Source: a virus (lineage: Duplodnaviria; Heunggongvirae; Uroviricota; Caudoviricetes). From it: a stretch of DNA of 35,745 nt. The position numbers and the translations under genes are program-made. Below the pieces are notes generated by a model. It was not told where the DNA came from, made no database searches, and saw nothing but the letters and a program-made list of their open reading frames with translations. Shown piece by piece: positions 3,558 to 11,053 of this stretch. The DNA is taken from IMG/VR virus record IMGVR_UViG_2548876857_000008; one strand, 5' to 3'. Within the stretch, counting starts at the first letter, position 1. Each line of letters opens with the position of its first letter.

Positions 3558-5303
3558 TTAACCGCCGACTACGTTCAGTTGCACTCGGGCGGTAAGCTGC
3601 TGCGCGGCGGCGTCCAGTTCTTCTTCCGCCACGCCTTCTGGCCAGCGTTTCACCAGTTCCTGATACAGTGCGACGTTCCATTCCGGCAACCGTGCTTTCA
3701 GCGCCTTCGCCGCCTCGACGTGAGTCAGACGCCGGGCTTCAACGCGTGGAGCGCGTACCGGGGAATCCTGACCACGACGCGGCAGGAACGCGGGCAGTTC
3801 GCTGTCGGTGATGGGTTTATACGGGTCAAGCCTGCCGCCGAACGGCAGCGCCTTCGCTTTACGCGCCGCAGCCGCGTCCGTCTCGTTATCTGTTCCGGTA
3901 ACAATCTGCTCAATCTGTTTAGCCGCAGTCTGCGCGGGTGTATCGGCGTGGCGCTTGTGATTCTGGCCCAGCACCGCCGCGCCTTCGGCAAAGCCGTATT
4001 CGTCCTTGCGGACTTCCTCCACCAGGTGAAAATACTCGTGGCCATCGTCACCGATGAGCACTACCTGCGCGGCATCGCTGCGCCACGGATTGCGGGTGAT
4101 CATCAGTTTTTCACCCACCATCACATCTGGCACGGTGGAGACGTCGTATTCCGTACCCTGAAACGACACGCGCAGCTTCGGCGTTATCTTGCGGCTTTCC
4201 GGCGCGGCAACAGCCAGTTCGCGGCAGACCTCCACCGATGGCGCTTTGATAAGCTGCTGCGCGGTGATGGTCATCCAGACGTTACTACGCGACTTGCCGT
4301 GGCGGGTGTGAATCGCGGTGGCGTTGAAGTGCTGCCGCCACAGGCGCGCTTTGGCGTTCAGTTCCTCCAGGCTGTGAACCGGCTGGAACTTCAGCCCCGG
4401 TTCAAAGCGGCGTTCGATAATGTCGCGCGCCTTTTCCACCTGCCCGGTGGCGCGGGCGTTGTGGGCTTTATGCGCCACCACGTCAATGCCCAGCGAACGA
4501 CAGAGGTTCTTCGTCATAGCGGCGGTGTTGGCCGAGCCGGGGTCGAGATACAACATATGCGGCACGCCGTGGAGCACATCCGCGCCGCCGCGCTCCTGCA
4601 TGGCATTGATGAGAACGGAACAGAGATTTTCGCCAGACTCCGCCCCCATCACGTATTCAACGTAGATCCAGCCGCTGGTATGGTCGGTCAGTTCATAGCT
4701 CCATACCCGGTCACTGGCGATACGTTGCAGGTTCTTCGGCTTGTTTTTGTAGAACGTCGCGCTGTCCATCACCTGTAACCCGCGCTGGCCGTTGCTGAGG
4801 TAGTACAGCGTGCAGAGCGAGGCGTCGATTTCCCAGACGTGATTGGGGTGCAGACTGGCAAGCTCCGTCACTGGCGCGGGCTGGCTGAGTTGATCCGGGT
4901 GCAGGCCGTAGCCACGCAGCGCCCGGATGATGGTGCTTTCTGACAATGGCACCCACTCGCCGCTTTCCTCATCCAGCCGCCCGGCGTCAATCTCGCCGTT
5001 GGCGCGTAACATCTCCACGGCATCAATGACGGAATACAGGCGCTTGCCGTTCTTACGGGTGGCTTCCGTCAGCGTAGCGGAAATCATCACCGCCTCATCG
5101 CGGGTCAGCGCGGTTTTTCCGGCGTCGGTGCGGCGCTTGCGTTTATCGGTCACGGCAACCTCCTTTATTCTGCGTAACAGCGTGGCGCGGGACAGGCCAA
5201 GTTCCGCGCAGGCGGCAGTGTAGATTGCGCCGCGTGCGCCATGCCCGGCCTGCCGTGCAGCCTGAGCAACAGCAACTAAGCGTTCGGTCATGACGGCGCT
5301 CAT
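3558..5303 (-). CDS. MuA-like DDE transposase (rve/integrase-core superfamily)
   Basis: N-terminal helix-turn-helix, then candidate D-D-E residues (HVWEIDAS, LYLDPGSANT, ATGQVEKARD; D to E spacing 36 aa). Lies between Ner and B. ATG at 5303 has a GGAAGG site 9 nt upstream; the track start at 5312 has zero spacing. Confidence 0.8.
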   Translation of the reverse strand: MSAVMTERLVAVAQAARQAGHGARGAIYTAACAELGLSRATLLRRIKEVAVTDKRKRRTDAGKTALTRDEAVMISATLTEATRKNGKRLYSVIDAVEMLRANGEIDAGRLDEESGEWVPLSESTIIRALRGYGLHPDQLSQPAPVTELASLHPNHVWEIDASLCTLYYLSNGQRGLQVMDSATFYKNKPKNLQRIASDRVWSYELTDHTSGWIYVEYVMGAESGENLCSVLINAMQERGGADVLHGVPHMLYLDPGSANTAAMTKNLCRSLGIDVVAHKAHNARATGQVEKARDIIERRFEPGLKFQPVHSLEELNAKARLWRQHFNATAIHTRHGKSRSNVWMTITAQQLIKAPSVEVCRELAVAAPESRKITPKLRVSFQGTEYDVSTVPDVMVGEKLMITRNPWRSDAAQVVLIGDDGHEYFHLVEEVRKDEYGFAEGAAVLGQNHKRHADTPAQTAAKQIEQIVTGTDNETDAAAARKAKALPFGGRLDPYKPITDSELPAFLPRRGQDSPVRAPRVEARRLTHVEAAKALKARLPEWNVALYQELVKRWPEGVAEEELDAAAQQLTARVQLNVVGG

Positions 5304-5305
5304 GG

Positions 5306-5605
5306 TCAGCATCCTTCCGGTAGTTCGGGAACTAACATCCAGTGGGTGATCTGTTTTGCCGGGTACGTTTCACTGGTGCAGTGAAACTCGCCATCAATAT
5401 AGTTAGCGGTTTCCACGCCGTAGCCATCACAGACCAGCACAAGGTCATAGTCACCAGGCAGTTGTGCGTCAGTGGCTATCCACGGTGAGGCCAGCGCATC
5501 CTTAAAAGCGACTCTCAGCAGTCGGCCACCGAGGATATCGGCGTTAAAGTGGTAACTCGGCTCCTGCGGAGCCTTAGCGAAATCAATAACTAATGTGCGG
5601 ATCAT
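5306..5605 (-). CDS. hypothetical early protein
   Basis: 99 aa; its ATG at 5605 overlaps the upstream stop (ATGA). Confidence 0.5.
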   Translation of the reverse strand: MIRTLVIDFAKAPQEPSYHFNADILGGRLLRVAFKDALASPWIATDAQLPGDYDLVLVCDGYGVETANYIDGEFHCTSETYPAKQITHWMLVPELPEGC

Positions 5606-6548: not shown

Positions 6549-6848
6549 TTAGCGACTGCCAGCCAGCAACCGCTGATTCATTTCATTCAGCCTGTCCTGA
6601 GCGCGTGTGACTTCCGTCGCGTGGGCGTGGGCGATTTGCAGCATCGCCATACTCATGGCGAAGCGCCCATTTTCCAGCCGTTGTACCAGTCCCTCTTCGA
6701 TCAGAGTGTCAGCGGCGCGGGTGATATTGGCCGGGGATTCATGCAACGCCGCCGCCAATTCGCCATTGGACAACCCAGTGAGCGAGTAGCCTTTCAGGGC
6801 TTTGAGTACGCGCAGGATACGTGCGCCGGAAGTAGAGGTGGGTTTCAT
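6549..6848 (-). CDS. winged-helix DNA-binding protein (IclR-N-type HTH)
   Basis: RILRVLKALKG...LSNGELAAALHESPANITRAADTLIEEGLVQR matches the IclR-type HTH pattern. ATGA overlap with the upstream gene. Confidence 0.55.
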   Translation of the reverse strand: MKPTSTSGARILRVLKALKGYSLTGLSNGELAAALHESPANITRAADTLIEEGLVQRLENGRFAMSMAMLQIAHAHATEVTRAQDRLNEMNQRLLAGSR

Positions 6849-7094: not shown

Positions 7095-7331
7095 TTAGTT
7101 AGGTTCGTGCAGGATGCCCGGCACGATCTCTTTGCCGATGGTGCGGGACAGCTCTTTCAGAATGCGAAACGTCAGCCGTCCACGCGGCAAATCCTGTTTA
7201 CCCGCCCAGCGATCAACAGCTTGCGTAACCGTCCGGGGTTCGTAGCCGGTACTGATGGCGAACTGGCGAAAGTTGCTGCCCTGCTCAATCAGTCGCGCGT
7301 GGATTTGGTGTTTGTTCATTAGTTTGTTCAT
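7095..7331 (-). CDS. ner: Ner/Nlp-family DNA-binding regulator
   Basis: 78 aa, first gene of the leftward early operon and divergent from the repressor. FRQFAISTGYEPRTVTQAVDR resembles the Ner/Nlp HTH. GAGGG precedes the ATG. Confidence 0.8.
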   Translation of the reverse strand: MNKLMNKHQIHARLIEQGSNFRQFAISTGYEPRTVTQAVDRWAGKQDLPRGRLTFRILKELSRTIGKEIVPGILHEPN

Positions 7332-7412
7332 TTGTTCCCTCTGAGCTATTATGTACTCAATTGGGTTTATTGTACGTACTCAAACGGGCAAGTCAACGAC
7401 TAATATGCACAA
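7332..7412. promoter_or_regulatory. divergent early/repressor control region with repeated GTAC-core elements
   Basis: 81-bp gap between divergent ner and repressor starts. GTACTCAA occurs at 7353-7360 and 7376-7383, with TGTAC at 7352 and 7371. A TAATAT -10-like hexamer lies at 7401-7406. Confidence 0.45.
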
Positions 7413-7823
7413 ATGAACATAAAAGAAAGACTCAAAAAAATACTCGCTGACAAAGCGTTATCAATCACTGATGCTGCCGCACAGTGCGATATCCCATATC
7501 GTTCTCTACAAAACTATCTGCGTGGCGAGCGAGAACCAAATGCGGAGGCATTGATCTCAATAGGTACCCATTTGGGTATAAATATTGATTGGCTGCTCAC
7601 CGGCAGAGGAGGAATGTATCTGTCTGAACATGCGGATGTTTTGACTGAGCAGCCGGAATACAGCCATGCCGATTTGAAGTTACTGGAATTTTTGAATCAG
7701 TTGGAACCGGATGTACGAAAGGATTTGTTACGCAGTGCTGAAGAAAAACAGCGAGTGGCCGCCCTAGAAAAAAGATTAGAGGAATTGGCTTTAGAACTCG
7801 AAAGCCTAAAACGTTCGGCGTAA
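7413..7823 (+). CDS. XRE-family HTH repressor (c/cI-like)
   Basis: N-terminal HTH (LSITDAAAQCDIPYRSLQNYLRGEREPNAEALISIGTHLGINIDWLL) and coiled-coil C-terminus. Divergent from ner. No S24 peptidase domain. Confidence 0.7.
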   Translation: MNIKERLKKILADKALSITDAAAQCDIPYRSLQNYLRGEREPNAEALISIGTHLGINIDWLLTGRGGMYLSEHADVLTEQPEYSHADLKLLEFLNQLEPDVRKDLLRSAEEKQRVAALEKRLEELALELESLKRSA

Positions 7824-7861
7824 AGTGTTCTCATTAAGAACAAAACATGAAGGACTATGTT

Positions 7862-8383
7862 ATGAAACACTTTTTCTTACCTTTGGGGGTTTGTGCGCTG
7901 TTGTTGTCGGGATGTGGTGATGACGATGTTACACAGCCATCTGCATCGACAATGTTTACTGTTGAAACCGATAGTCCGGTAGTGAAGCGCGAATTGCCCT
8001 TTATTCGCCAACAGTGTCCAGGACTGGATAAATACGCAGCAAACTTTGATAAATTTAAGGTCTACGACGACACGATGCGTCCGGTGACAACGGTGGAGTT
8101 TCACGTCAAGAATGAGAACAGCATACCCGGTAATTACACCGCCTCTGATCATACCTGTTTCCTTTTCATCTCCAACAATACCCACGAAGTGAAGATTTCA
8201 AAATCCGCCTGCCAGTCTGTTTGCTTCGATAAAGCGGATGTGCCTGGTGGGGATCTGGTTGTGAAACTGGATAAAGAAAGAGTTCCTATGACTGCTGATA
8301 AGAAGCCGCCGCGCGAGGGGTGCCTGATGGTTTACTCGCCAGAGCCAAACGGGGATTACTGGACGTGTCCAAGACAAGATTAA
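7862..8383 (+). CDS. lipoprotein (signal peptide with lipobox LLSGC)
   Basis: MKHFFLPLGVCALLLSGC then a Cys-rich mature part. AGGA lies 7 nt before the ATG at 7862. Begins 38 bp after the repressor stop. Confidence 0.7.
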   Translation: MKHFFLPLGVCALLLSGCGDDDVTQPSASTMFTVETDSPVVKRELPFIRQQCPGLDKYAANFDKFKVYDDTMRPVTTVEFHVKNENSIPGNYTASDHTCFLFISNNTHEVKISKSACQSVCFDKADVPGGDLVVKLDKERVPMTADKKPPREGCLMVYSPEPNGDYWTCPRQD

Positions 8384-8460
8384 ACATGTTGTAAACAAAA
8401 CAAAAAAGCGTGCAGACAGCACGCATTTACTATCTAACTCTACTGAAGGTTTCAGATTCT

Positions 8461-9492
8461 ATGCCAGCAAATGAACCTGCAAATGCAATCGTTGTAAATC
8501 ATGTGGTTATTCACCTTTTAGATAAAGAGCCGCATGGGGTGACATCCTTACAGCTTAGCCCAGCAGAGAGTGGCGTCACCGCAGCATCACAACGCTTAAT
8601 AGATGATATCTGTGGGAAATATGCAGGGCGAATGGGGAAAGGTTATGGCCATTTTGAAGATGACCCTGACAATTACCCGATGCAAACAATCGTATCAGAC
8701 TATTTAGCTCAAGAGCATCCTGATGATTTTTACCGTAGCTCCTGCCGCATGATTCGTCATCTGGAATCTCGGATTCAAACAACACCACTCGCTACTGGTG
8801 GCTATGTTCTATTCGCCCACATTACGATGAATCAACACGAGCATATTTTAGTTGCCATGTTAAGCCCCACGACGGGAACTGCGGTTAACGATGCCTTTGC
8901 TATCCAGGAAAGTGTCTACCTTGATATCGACAAGCTACGTGTGGCGGGGCGTATTGACATTACGTCCTGGCAATCAGGTGCCGAACGTTATATAAGTTTC
9001 CTGAAAGGGAGCAATGCTGTATCTGGTTACTTTAAGCAGTTCCTGGGCTGTAACGATGTTTTGATCGCCAAGCGTGAAACAGAGAAATTGCGGGATGCGT
9101 TGAAAGAGTTTGCGACTGAGCAAGGGCTTGACCCCGCACGTCGAGAGGCTTTTCTGCAAACGGCCCATGACCATTTGAAGCAACTGAGCAAAGATGGTGA
9201 GCCTGTAGATCTGACAACCTTTGTGAACGCAGTCTGGCCACAAGAACCAGAACTGCTATCGACTAAGCTGGCCAACCAAGAACTGGAACTGTCGGATGGT
9301 TTTGTCCCAGATGGACGCGTACTAAAAGGAATCATTTCCTTTAAAGGAAAGTCCAATCATTGGGAGCTAAAGTTTGATCGTGCTGGTCTTCAAGATGGTT
9401 CAATTGAGTATAATCGTGATCAGGATGTAATCATTCTAAGGAATATTCCTGATAGCTTCAGAGAAGAGATACTGGATGAGGTTGAGGAGTGA
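8461..9492 (+). CDS. NdpA/YejK-like nucleoid-associated protein homolog (NA37 family)
   Basis: GGYVLFAHITMNQHEHILVAMLS and YISFLKGSNAVSGYFKQFLGC closely parallel E. coli YejK ([23 protein letters not shown] and [23 protein letters not shown]). Length is about the same. The track start at 8410 is GTG; ATG at 8461. Confidence 0.7.
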   Translation: MPANEPANAIVVNHVVIHLLDKEPHGVTSLQLSPAESGVTAASQRLIDDICGKYAGRMGKGYGHFEDDPDNYPMQTIVSDYLAQEHPDDFYRSSCRMIRHLESRIQTTPLATGGYVLFAHITMNQHEHILVAMLSPTTGTAVNDAFAIQESVYLDIDKLRVAGRIDITSWQSGAERYISFLKGSNAVSGYFKQFLGCNDVLIAKRETEKLRDALKEFATEQGLDPARREAFLQTAHDHLKQLSKDGEPVDLTTFVNAVWPQEPELLSTKLANQELELSDGFVPDGRVLKGIISFKGKSNHWELKFDRAGLQDGSIEYNRDQDVIILRNIPDSFREEILDEVEE

Positions 9493-10697
9493 GTATCAGT
9501 TTTGAGCAACTGGTGGGATTGTACAGGCAGATTACTTTCGGTAACGATATGGCCGAAGGTACGCTGGTGCTTACCCCAGAATCCTGCGAGTTGCTCAACG
9601 CTTTGCTTGAGGACACCGATACATATGGGATCTCTCTGGCACAAGGTGAAGTAGTGGCTGGCCAGCAGGTGTCGCTTTTTGTGAACGCCCCAAAGACAAA
9701 GCTAGGTCTGCTATGCCGTAATTTGGCGGCTTTGTTAAAGTCGCCAAAACACCAAAGCGAGGAACCTTCCCGCTACTACCTGATCGACAGCCAATTTTAT
9801 AGTTCGGATGCGCCAACATCTGTAATTGAAAACTACCGCACTATCTTAACATTTCTGCGCCTGCTTAAAGAAAAGTCGGCATACTTTGATACCAGTGCAT
9901 ATGAATGCGTTTTTTTCCGCGCCGATGTATTTAAATTACCTATACGTTACAGTGCAGAAACCGTAGAAAATCTTGATAAAACGACACTCGATGAACTCAT
10001 TCAGCAGTTTTCTGACGACACACACAAAGAGCAGAAACTCTCGCTTTTAATTGAAAGCATCCAGTTAATCGGTCAGGAAACGGAAAACAATAAAGTCTTT
10101 GAGTATGCACTGAAGAACATTGATAAATTAAAAGTTGAGTTCGATAAGGGTTATCGCCTCTTCACTTCTGGGTTCTCATACGAAAAGGTTCTGGATGAAC
10201 TTAGAACCGCCAAAGTTGAAGAAATGGGACGTATCCATAAAGTCTTTTCAGATATCCAAAACCAGATACTGGGTATCCCAGTCGCAACCATTATCGTCGC
10301 GACACAAATCAAGAAAGCAAGTGGTGATGTCTATCAAACCATTATCAATAGCGCAGTTTTTTTAGGGGCCTTTGTTTTTGCTACGTTGGTTATGTTGACT
10401 TTGTTCAACCAGTTACAGACGTTAACTGCTATCAAAGAAGAACTTCGACATAAAAAGACTCAGGTTGATAAAAAGTATGCATCAATAAAAAATGACATTG
10501 ATAGTATCTTTTGCTCTGTACGTAAACGTCTTTGCCGTCAGGTTATCGCGTTCTGGTTTATTATTATGTTCCTTGTTGTCGCTATTATATCGACAGGATT
10601 AATTTACCTATACTGCACATACCCTGAAACATGGAATATCTTGGTTACAAAAGTGATGTCATGGCGGCATCACTTGAGTAATAAGCCCACTCCTTAA
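9489..10697 (+). CDS. hypothetical membrane protein (soluble N-domain of about 270 aa plus two C-terminal TM helices)
   Basis: GTG start overlaps the NdpA-like stop (GTGA). Hydrophobic helices IPVATIIVATQI...AVFLGAFVFATLVMLTLF and VIAFWFIIMFLVVAIISTGLIYLY. No enzymatic motif seen. Confidence 0.65.
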   Translation: MSISFEQLVGLYRQITFGNDMAEGTLVLTPESCELLNALLEDTDTYGISLAQGEVVAGQQVSLFVNAPKTKLGLLCRNLAALLKSPKHQSEEPSRYYLIDSQFYSSDAPTSVIENYRTILTFLRLLKEKSAYFDTSAYECVFFRADVFKLPIRYSAETVENLDKTTLDELIQQFSDDTHKEQKLSLLIESIQLIGQETENNKVFEYALKNIDKLKVEFDKGYRLFTSGFSYEKVLDELRTAKVEEMGRIHKVFSDIQNQILGIPVATIIVATQIKKASGDVYQTIINSAVFLGAFVFATLVMLTLFNQLQTLTAIKEELRHKKTQVDKKYASIKNDIDSIFCSVRKRLCRQVIAFWFIIMFLVVAIISTGLIYLYCTYPETWNILVTKVMSWRHHLSNKPTP

Positions 10698-10758
10698 ACC
10701 CCTTTAAAAGCCTTCCTGCCTACCATTCCGCACACTGCCTCCATCACCCAATGGAGGC
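10693..10758 (+). promoter_or_regulatory. candidate late promoter element (dyad motif plus start-site hairpin) before the lysis genes
   Basis: CTTAAACCCCTTTAAAAGCC at 10693-10712. Perfect 8-bp hairpin GCCTCCAT/ATGGAGGC at 10737-10758 contains the GGAGG site and the first ATG. Confidence 0.45.
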
Positions 10759-10762
10759 ACTT

Positions 10763-11053
10763 ATGAAAACTTCTCTTTTCCCGCGTTTATCCGGCTGGCT
10801 GGTGGCATCGGTGGTGTTGTTCGCGCTGATTGCGCTGATTTCCCCGCAGCAGCTTCCGGTCGTTGTTTACAAACTGAGCCTGATCTCGCTGGCGGCGGTG
10901 CTGGGCTACTGGCTGGATCGCAGCCTGTTTCCCTATGCGCGGCCAAATTATTTTCAGTCAGCGGAAAATGAACAACGTCTCTTTGCCGCCGCCATGCTGC
11001 GCCGTGCGGTGATTGTCGCGGCGGTGTGTCTGGCCGTGGCGATGGGGCTGTAG
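10763..11053 (+). CDS. putative holin or lysis membrane protein
   Basis: 97 aa with two or three hydrophobic helices, immediately before the transglycosylase gene. ATG at 10763 has GGAGG 5 nt upstream; ATG at 10751 is an alternative. Confidence 0.4.
   Translation: MKTSLFPRLSGWLVASVVLFALIALISPQQLPVVVYKLSLISLAAVLGYWLDRSLFPYARPNYFQSAENEQRLFAAAMLRRAVIVAAVCLAVAMGL

Follow-up and report, generated by a model that had tools for sequence, protein, structure and literature searches.

A lipoprotein gene in the immunity region of a BcepMu-like prophage

The stretch of DNA analysed here (the window; 35.7 kb, 35,745 nucleotides of IMG/VR record IMGVR_UViG_2548876857_000008, identical to IMG/VR UViG_2579778940_000019) is a BcepMu-like transposable (Mu-like) prophage of an enterobacterium. 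Its leftward early operon contains a ner-like gene (7095-7331), a MarR/IclR-type regulator (6549-6848) and a DDE transposase (3558-5312), and also encodes a DUF3102 protein and an AAA+ B-like protein. Divergent from this operon, the rightward immunity operon opens with the gene for a 136-aa HTH (Cro/CI-type) prophage repressor (7413-7823, plus strand), which matches Pfam HTH_3 (4.7e-8), Phage_CI_repr (1.5e-4) and PHROG repressor families, and whose position agrees with that of the repressor of BcepMu-like prophages. The next open reading frame, at 7862-8383 on the plus strand, encodes a 173-aa lipoprotein precursor and is the subject of this study. Behind it, also on the plus strand, lie a YejK/NA37-like NAP gene (8461-9492), a gene for a 402-aa membrane protein with C-terminal TM helices (9489-10697) and a holin gene (10751-11053), followed by an SLT endolysin and by Mu-type head and tail genes. 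The region from 7400 to 10700 is a low-GC island (0.38-0.47, against ~0.58).

Three TAYGTACTCAAWYGGG-like repeats occur at 7350-7365, 7373-7388 and 7561-7576; two of the copies fall between the ner-like and repressor genes, where the divergent promoters would lie, the third lies within the repressor gene, and all are candidate operators. An Rfam search of the whole window gave no match.

The open reading frame encodes a predicted lipoprotein with paired cysteines

The ATG at 7862 has the Shine-Dalgarno sequence AAGGA (7850-7854, plus strand, read from the sequence) 7 nt upstream, and an in-frame ATG at 7847 lacks one. AAGGA or TAAGGA is kept in relatives, and the equivalent start is used by the homologues and by the RefSeq annotation of E. 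coli A35. With the repressor stop codon, TAA, at 7821-7823, the spacer between the two genes runs from 7824 to 7861 and is 38 bp long. Pairwise comparison with four relatives gave dN/dS values of 0.07-0.12 for the gene, indicating purifying selection; because of these values, we consider that ORF 7862-8383 is a functional protein-coding gene.

As the criterion for a lipoprotein, we used a positive n-region, a hydrophobic h-region, a lipobox of the form [LVI][ASTVI][GAS]C and a Cys at 15-35. The predicted signal peptide, which runs through the lipidated Cys18 (7862-7915, plus strand; MKHFFLPLGVCALLLSG followed by C), matches this PROSITE PS51257-type rule, with K2, an h-region whose mean Kyte-Doolittle value is 2.59, and a cysteine in the allowed range. 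Nearly all close homologues share its lipobox, LLSG followed by Cys18. An acidic, poorly conserved tether (GDDDVTQPSASTM; 7916-7954, plus strand) joins the lipid anchor to the folded domain; here the predicted pLDDT is below 50 up to residue 28, and both length and sequence vary across the alignment of homologues.

The mature lipoprotein would have 156 residues, of which seven (4.5%) are cysteines: the lipidated one and six more. These six fall into pairs. C52 and C121 are present or absent together in 18 of 18 close and 30 of 32 distant relatives; C99 and C117 are invariant; and C154 and C169 come and go with the C-terminal extension of the protein, apart from a few distant, poorly aligned relatives that keep only one of them. 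From this covariation we infer three disulfides, C52-C121, C99-C117 and C154-C169, which in turn point to an oxidising, periplasmic location. The earlier note on this DNA had described a lipoprotein with a clear lipobox and a Cys-rich mature domain, encoded by a gene beginning 38 bp past the repressor stop, and it was right in each of these respects.

A predicted alpha/beta domain from an uncharacterised family

Behind the tether, the phrog_10002 profile match described below, the AlphaFold2 model and the cysteine covariation delimit a core periplasmic domain (residues ~32-140; 7955-8281, plus strand) that contains the motifs LPFIRQQCPGLDKY, IPxxYxAS(G/D)HxCF and KSACQSVCFD. A C-terminal extension follows (8282-8383, plus strand, including the stop codon), with a motif, PxTxDxKPPRxGCLxV(Y/F)xP...W.CP, that also occurs in P0031, P0033-P0035 and P0037, relatives where an insert of variable length sets it apart from the core domain. 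AlphaFold2, run on the family alignment, predicted with confidence an alpha/beta domain behind a disordered tether, with a mean pLDDT of 82 overall and of ~90 in the domain.

Searches of Pfam, NCBIfam and PADLOC with the lipoprotein returned nothing beyond signal-peptide-level matches, and no family passed threshold; weak matches to LptM, DUF5006 and phrog_8801 cover the signal peptide only. Profile searches did not place the protein with lambda Bor (Pfam Bor) or other annotated prophage lipoproteins, nor did it match the Ltp repeat PF07553, any PHROG annotated as exclusion, or the Llp, Cor, Bor and Ltp proteins themselves. Neither the family profile nor the phrog_5825 and phrog_10002 relatives had a sequence match in the PDB. 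The fold search likewise gave no match, only weak, noise-level resemblances to LolA/LprG/START-type lipid binders and to small inhibitor or immunity folds, so that we provisionally regard the alpha/beta domain as one without a known relative. An enzymatic role through a conserved histidine was considered and rejected, as several homologues have Asn in place of H97.

A Megablast search of phage records with the region gave no match, and tblastn against deposited phage records found only Klebsiella phage KP12 and Escherichia phage Phi06_2974 B, in both of which the protein is unannotated or hypothetical. Our literature search found no paper on this lipoprotein family. It is an uncharacterised family that has no Pfam entry and whose homologues are all annotated as 'hypothetical'.

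The gene keeps its place behind diverged repressors

We mapped about 45 loci related to the lipoprotein gene by tblastn. In all of them, the homologue lies in a BcepMu-like prophage, directly downstream of its HTH repressor gene on the same strand, usually 35-38 bp away, and in two relatives of a fused type described below (L046 and L053) its start codon overlaps the repressor stop by 4 bp. The linkage spans at least three unrelated or highly diverged repressor types (rep136-type, A35-type and L017-type), and it holds regardless of what cargo lies downstream. In most relatives, the gene after the lipoprotein gene is on the opposite strand, and a hairpin follows the lipoprotein gene. A simple promoter scan found no plus-strand promoter. 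The synteny, the spacing and the start/stop-codon coupling argue strongly that the lipoprotein is co-expressed with the repressor in lysogens. These data also bear out the earlier suggestion of a lysogeny-linked lipoprotein, and the description of its product as a lysogeny-expressed envelope protein is well supported, with expression itself deduced from the gene arrangement.

The synonymous divergence (dS) of the lipoprotein gene to its relatives is 0.8-1.2, similar to that of the repressor and MarR genes; this similarity, together with the variable cargo downstream, marks it as a backbone gene of the BcepMu-like immunity region and not a mobile moron.

In E. coli A35 (L001), the block of lipoprotein, NAP and TM-protein genes is 94% identical to that of the window, and it stands behind an unrelated 116-aa repressor with a 113-bp spacer. 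The homology between the two (window 7300-7850, L001 8440-9010) breaks at ~7850, at the lipoprotein ribosome-binding site. The position of this breakpoint indicates that immunity regions are swapped by recombination at this site.

Elements in the flanking spacers

The spacer between the repressor and lipoprotein genes contains a conserved palindrome, TGTTCTCATTAAGAACA (7826-7842), present as a single exact copy in the window. TGTTCYYATTAAGAACA recurs unchanged behind the stop codon of every rep136-type repressor, even between repressor proteins that are only 43-56% identical, and is absent with other repressor types. The palindrome could be a protein-binding site or an RNA element. We also considered it as a repeated operator and rejected this, given the single copy and a count of near-matches in the window that was below chance.

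The 77-bp spacer before the NAP gene contains the GC hairpin GCGTGC-AGACA-GCACGC (8408-8424), with a stem of 6 bp, just where the earlier note had placed it. That note had also proposed that the hairpin might be an attenuator separating the lipoprotein gene from the next two genes, and this part held up poorly, given a short stem, little conservation and a T-run on the side of the opposite strand. When the 77-nt spacer was shuffled, 10 of 200 shuffles folded as well or better (z = -1.8), a marginal result. The U-run lies on the minus-strand side, and the plus-strand tail, AUUUACUAUC, makes a poor terminator tail. In a Salmonella relative (L015) the stem is down to 4 bp; a C-to-T change in E. 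coli A35 still allows a G.U pair in the plus-strand RNA; and the Dam-type relatives have a different hairpin (GGTGGTGC...GCACCACC) after the lipoprotein stop codon. The hairpin at 8408-8424 is at best a weak plus-strand terminator or RNA 3' end, and plausibly serves as a 3'-end element of the repressor-lipoprotein transcript.

The minus strand of 8400-8483 has a promoter-like site (8483-8456) ahead of the hairpin and its U-run. The two would together yield an antisense RNA of ~50 nt over the NAP ribosome-binding site, a tentative lead, as promoter-like matches in this region occur at chance level.

The downstream pair is separable cargo

The NAP gene matches Pfam NA37 (5e-74), and the pair that it forms with the membrane-protein gene (8461-10697) matches NCBIfam DS1_1 (2e-18) and DS1_2 (8e-21), anti-phage models, significantly but in both cases below the cut-offs; PADLOC-2023 has no model for such a pair. 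The pair shares the architecture of type II PANGU, a NAP with a TM effector, and is a candidate PANGU type II/DS-1-like two-gene defence system, a diverged relative of DS-1. Its dS to relatives is 0.06-0.33, several-fold below that of the lipoprotein gene and of the flanking phage genes, and for this reason we take it to be recently acquired defence cargo.

The lipoprotein might be thought a third component of this defence system: its gene adjoins the pair on the same strand within a single low-GC island, and E. coli A35 keeps the trio at 94% DNA identity although its repressor differs. We find this barely credible. Most lipoprotein loci lack the NAP pair, which is present in the window, in E. 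coli A35 and in one Salmonella lineage; the lipoprotein gene and the pair differ several-fold in dS; and the published PANGU (10.64898/2026.04.06.716658) and DS-1 (PMC13092281) systems consist of two genes and include no lipoprotein. On co-occurrence and dS, we therefore rejected the lipoprotein as a component of the NAP pair.

The interval from the lipoprotein gene to the holin gene (8384-10750 in the window, and likewise in L002, L008, L023, L028, L046 and L048) is a cargo slot whose content varies: it may be the NAP pair, an opposite-strand Dam methylase with or without other ORFs (in most loci), ORFs of unknown function, or nothing (in Serratia sp. Ag1). PADLOC, run on the slot in relatives, found only a DrmD-like 227-aa ORF (L002:8490-9173, 2e-90) and an HTH match.

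The minimal loci bear on another explanation, namely that the lipoprotein is a late-expressed lysis-cassette accessory, one that regulates or inhibits the SLT-type endolysin or the spanin, for instance. In Serratia L023, in the Pseudomonas-type L054 and in L050, the holin/endolysin genes do follow immediately behind the gene on the same strand. Against a lysis role, the opposite-strand Dam gene and other cargo intervene before the holin in most relatives, with a hairpin behind the lipoprotein gene; the gene stays 35-38 bp from the repressor or overlaps it; and holin, endolysin and spanin functions are already assigned downstream. We consider a lysis accessory very improbable.

The same domain on different anchors

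An exhaustive HMM search returned 131 representative relatives, which have in common a core of ~100 residues with the pattern LPxIRxxCPGLDKY ... IPxxYxAxGHxCF ... KxACxSVCLD. The close family is confined to Enterobacterales (Escherichia, Salmonella, Citrobacter, Serratia, Pantoea, Apirhabdus and Pseudocitrobacter) and is rare, occurring in 22 of 5,426 complete E. coli genomes. Residues ~19-130 of the lipoprotein match positions 211-321 of the 328-position phrog_10002 profile (E = 1.3e-12), which is also matched by 31 of 32 relatives. This match, the CPGLDKY, GHxCF and ACQSVC motifs and the paired cysteines place the lipoprotein in the family of the phrog_10002 C-terminal periplasmic domain.

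The anchor of the core domain varies across the family. Roughly half of the relatives have a lipobox, some of them with Asp at +2, and others carry the domain on an N-terminal TM helix. The phrog_10002 proteins themselves (325-329 aa, from BcepMu-like prophages) are bitopic, with a cytoplasmic domain, a TM helix and then the core domain, and they occupy the same slot directly behind the repressor. The window lipoprotein has this core domain and this genomic slot in common with them; unlike them, it lacks the cytoplasmic (phrog_5825/Flk_N-like) half and the TM helix, has a lipid anchor instead, and carries an extra Cys-loop extension at its C-terminus. The two halves, fused in the enterobacterial phrog_10002 proteins, are encoded separately in Pseudomonas-type BcepMu-like phages: a phrog_5825 gene comes first and the gene for a family lipoprotein of 134-136 aa next to it, both behind the repressor (L054 5396-6405, with relatives L055-L067). 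The phrog_5825 product is a tail-anchored cytoplasmic protein that is 29% identical to the N-terminal half of the phrog_10002 fusion (E = 1e-21), with weak similarity to Flk_N and marginal similarity to anti-repressor PHROGs (E ~5e-4). We searched the 35.7-kb window for a phrog_5825-like partner and for a second copy of the domain and found neither.

One relative, P0048, has a TM helix, the core domain and then two PF07553 Ltp repeats, and it matches PHROGs annotated as superinfection exclusion; it is the only Ltp fusion among the 131 representatives. Serratia sp. Ag1 (L023/L041, 3840-5525) has tandem paralogues, a 324-aa protein of the fusion type (phrog_10002) followed by a 177-aa protein of the lipoprotein type. 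In the giant protein P0047 (4417 aa, on an NCBI contig of 957 kb), 14 stretches match family profile positions 80-139; the protein may contain repeats of a portion of the domain, unless the match is spurious.

The fused and split forms raise the possibility of a trans-envelope sensor, in which the domain would sense a cue in the envelope and, via the phrog_5825/Flk_N-like partner, modulate the repressor or the choice between lysis and lysogeny. The phrog_10002 architecture would suit this, with a cytoplasmic domain joined through a TM helix to the core domain and a start codon that overlaps the repressor stop, as would the adjacent tail-anchored and lipoprotein genes behind the repressor in Pseudomonas-type phages and the likeness of the cytoplasmic domain to anti-repressors. 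That likeness is only marginal, however, and the window phage and most of its enterobacterial relatives have the lipoprotein only; a lone lipoprotein cannot signal across the inner membrane. We regard a sensor as quite unlikely. A broader view, in our judgement doubtful but less so, is that the disulfide-bonded domain is the periplasmic module of a new BcepMu-like immunity-operon system, be it for entry-blocking exclusion at the inner membrane or as a trans-envelope sensor of the repressor. By lineage, such a module would be lipid-anchored, TM-anchored, or fused or adjacent to a Flk_N-like tail-anchored cytoplasmic protein.

Candidate functions of the lipoprotein

Lambda carries rexA-rexB behind cI, exclusion genes on the immunity transcript. 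P22 SieA is likewise a prophage-expressed exclusion protein (PMC10883804). If its hypothesised role is correct, the window gene would follow the same logic, that of exclusion genes expressed with or near the repressor; unlike the lipoprotein, Rex and SieA are integral or cytoplasmic proteins, and they have no homology to it. A known exclusion lipoprotein is Ltp of Streptococcus thermophilus TP-J34 (PF07553): its gene is downstream of the repressor in the lysogeny module and is transcribed in the prophage, and the protein acts outside the cytoplasmic membrane and blocks DNA injection at that membrane (PMC3952083). The window gene has the Ltp-type organisation, co-oriented with and downstream of the repressor in a lysogeny module, and this is a likeness of organisation, not homology. 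Its product lacks the PF07553 repeats, which occur only in the distant fused P0048; its fold is unrelated and its host Gram-negative; and its function is hypothesised, whereas that of Ltp has been demonstrated.

Superinfection exclusion by the lipoprotein is plausible by analogy. It is favoured because the organisation mirrors that of ltp and rexAB, because the gene is kept whatever the immunity type, and because of the Ltp fusion. Specifically, we tentatively propose, with somewhat less than even confidence, that the repressor-coupled lipoprotein is an envelope-level exclusion factor acting at the periplasmic face of the inner membrane. The repressor and lipoprotein genes would form a two-gene operon, so that the lipoprotein would be made in lysogens together with the repressor. 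Its precursor would be exported by Sec and lipidated at Cys18, and the mature protein would fold in the periplasm, with the three disulfides forming in the alpha/beta domain. This membrane-tethered periplasmic binding domain would then interfere with the entry of a superinfecting phage, at DNA ejection or during periplasmic transit. Like Ltp of TP-J34, it would act at the cytoplasmic (inner) membrane, on its periplasmic side, and would not jam a receptor in the outer membrane in the manner of Llp or Cor. Inner-membrane action is favoured because many relatives are necessarily anchored there, with tethers of 10-20 residues that are too short for the outer membrane; the Asp at +2 in some lipoprotein relatives is a further hint.

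Several observations speak against parts of this proposal. The pairwise dN/dS values indicate purifying selection and not the diversifying selection that is common in phage-phage arms races; the Ltp fusion was seen in only one of the 131 representatives; the window phage lacks a phrog_5825-like partner; the simple scan gave no plus-strand promoter; and no homologue of the lipoprotein has a known function. As for location, the residues at +2 and +3 are Gly-Asp, which gives no clear sorting prediction. Under the classical +2 rule, a lipoprotein that has Gly here, and not Asp, goes to the outer membrane; Seydel et al., in 1999, reportedly saw that a Gly in this position can lead to the retention of reporter constructs.

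An outer-membrane location would suit a different mechanism, suggested in the earlier note, in which the lipoprotein binds the periplasmic face of a phage receptor and blocks adsorption as T5 Llp and the Cor proteins do. The residue at +2 agrees with this by the classical rule, and the gene does encode a lipoprotein in a prophage immunity region. Llp, a 61-residue lipoprotein, jams the FhuA plug from the periplasm, and Llp and Cor are phage-encoded, lipidated, periplasmic and disulfide-containing (PMC9586334), features that are predicted for the window protein too, including the intramolecular disulfide. The analogy nevertheless fared badly. The window protein has no sequence or fold similarity to Llp, Cor or exclusion PHROGs, and its mature form, at 156 residues, is well beyond the 61 of Llp (PMC9586334) and the ~60-residue size of the Llp/Cor lipoproteins. 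Unlike the window gene, llp is expressed early in lytic growth and adjoins the gene for the receptor-binding protein, not a repressor. Moreover, the many relatives with a TM anchor or a cytoplasmic fusion could not reach an outer-membrane receptor. [quoted passage not shown]

The prophage might instead use the lipoprotein to help its host without any exclusion. Lambda Bor, a small lysogen-expressed prophage lipoprotein that confers serum resistance, is the model for such a lysogenic-conversion factor, and candidate roles would be resistance to serum or stress, a part in envelope homeostasis, or inhibition of an enzyme or toxin in the periplasm. Expression with the repressor, as we deduce it, is what such a factor would show; strong purifying selection and conserved motifs would suit a conserved host or environmental target; and the weak fold resemblances include lipid binders of the LolA/LprG/START type and small inhibitor or immunity folds. 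Those resemblances are at noise level, however, and the protein matches neither Bor nor any other such family. Conversion genes are usually variable morons, as is bor, whereas the window lipoprotein gene is a fixed backbone gene. The Ltp fusion and the coupling to a phage-specific tail-anchored protein also point to a phage-directed role. We therefore hold a conversion factor to be unlikely, and retain exclusion at the inner membrane as our tentative reading of the lipoprotein.

Significance

The genes on a repressor transcript are what a dormant prophage does for or to its host. Here, an unannotated lipoprotein family is fixed at the repressor slot across Mu-like prophages of Enterobacteriaceae and of Pseudomonas-type hosts, and, judged from these genome comparisons, its domain family is a hallmark of the BcepMu-like phage immunity operon. 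The analysis separates the lipoprotein from the adjacent NAP-based defence pair and marks the interval between the lipoprotein and holin genes as a variable cargo slot. If the family does not act in exclusion, it would still offer a clean handle on an unstudied lysogeny function. If it does, it would give Gram-negative bacteria a new family of exclusion proteins that act at the envelope, one that combines an unknown fold with a modular anchor, and phage host range and escape from phage therapy would be affected.
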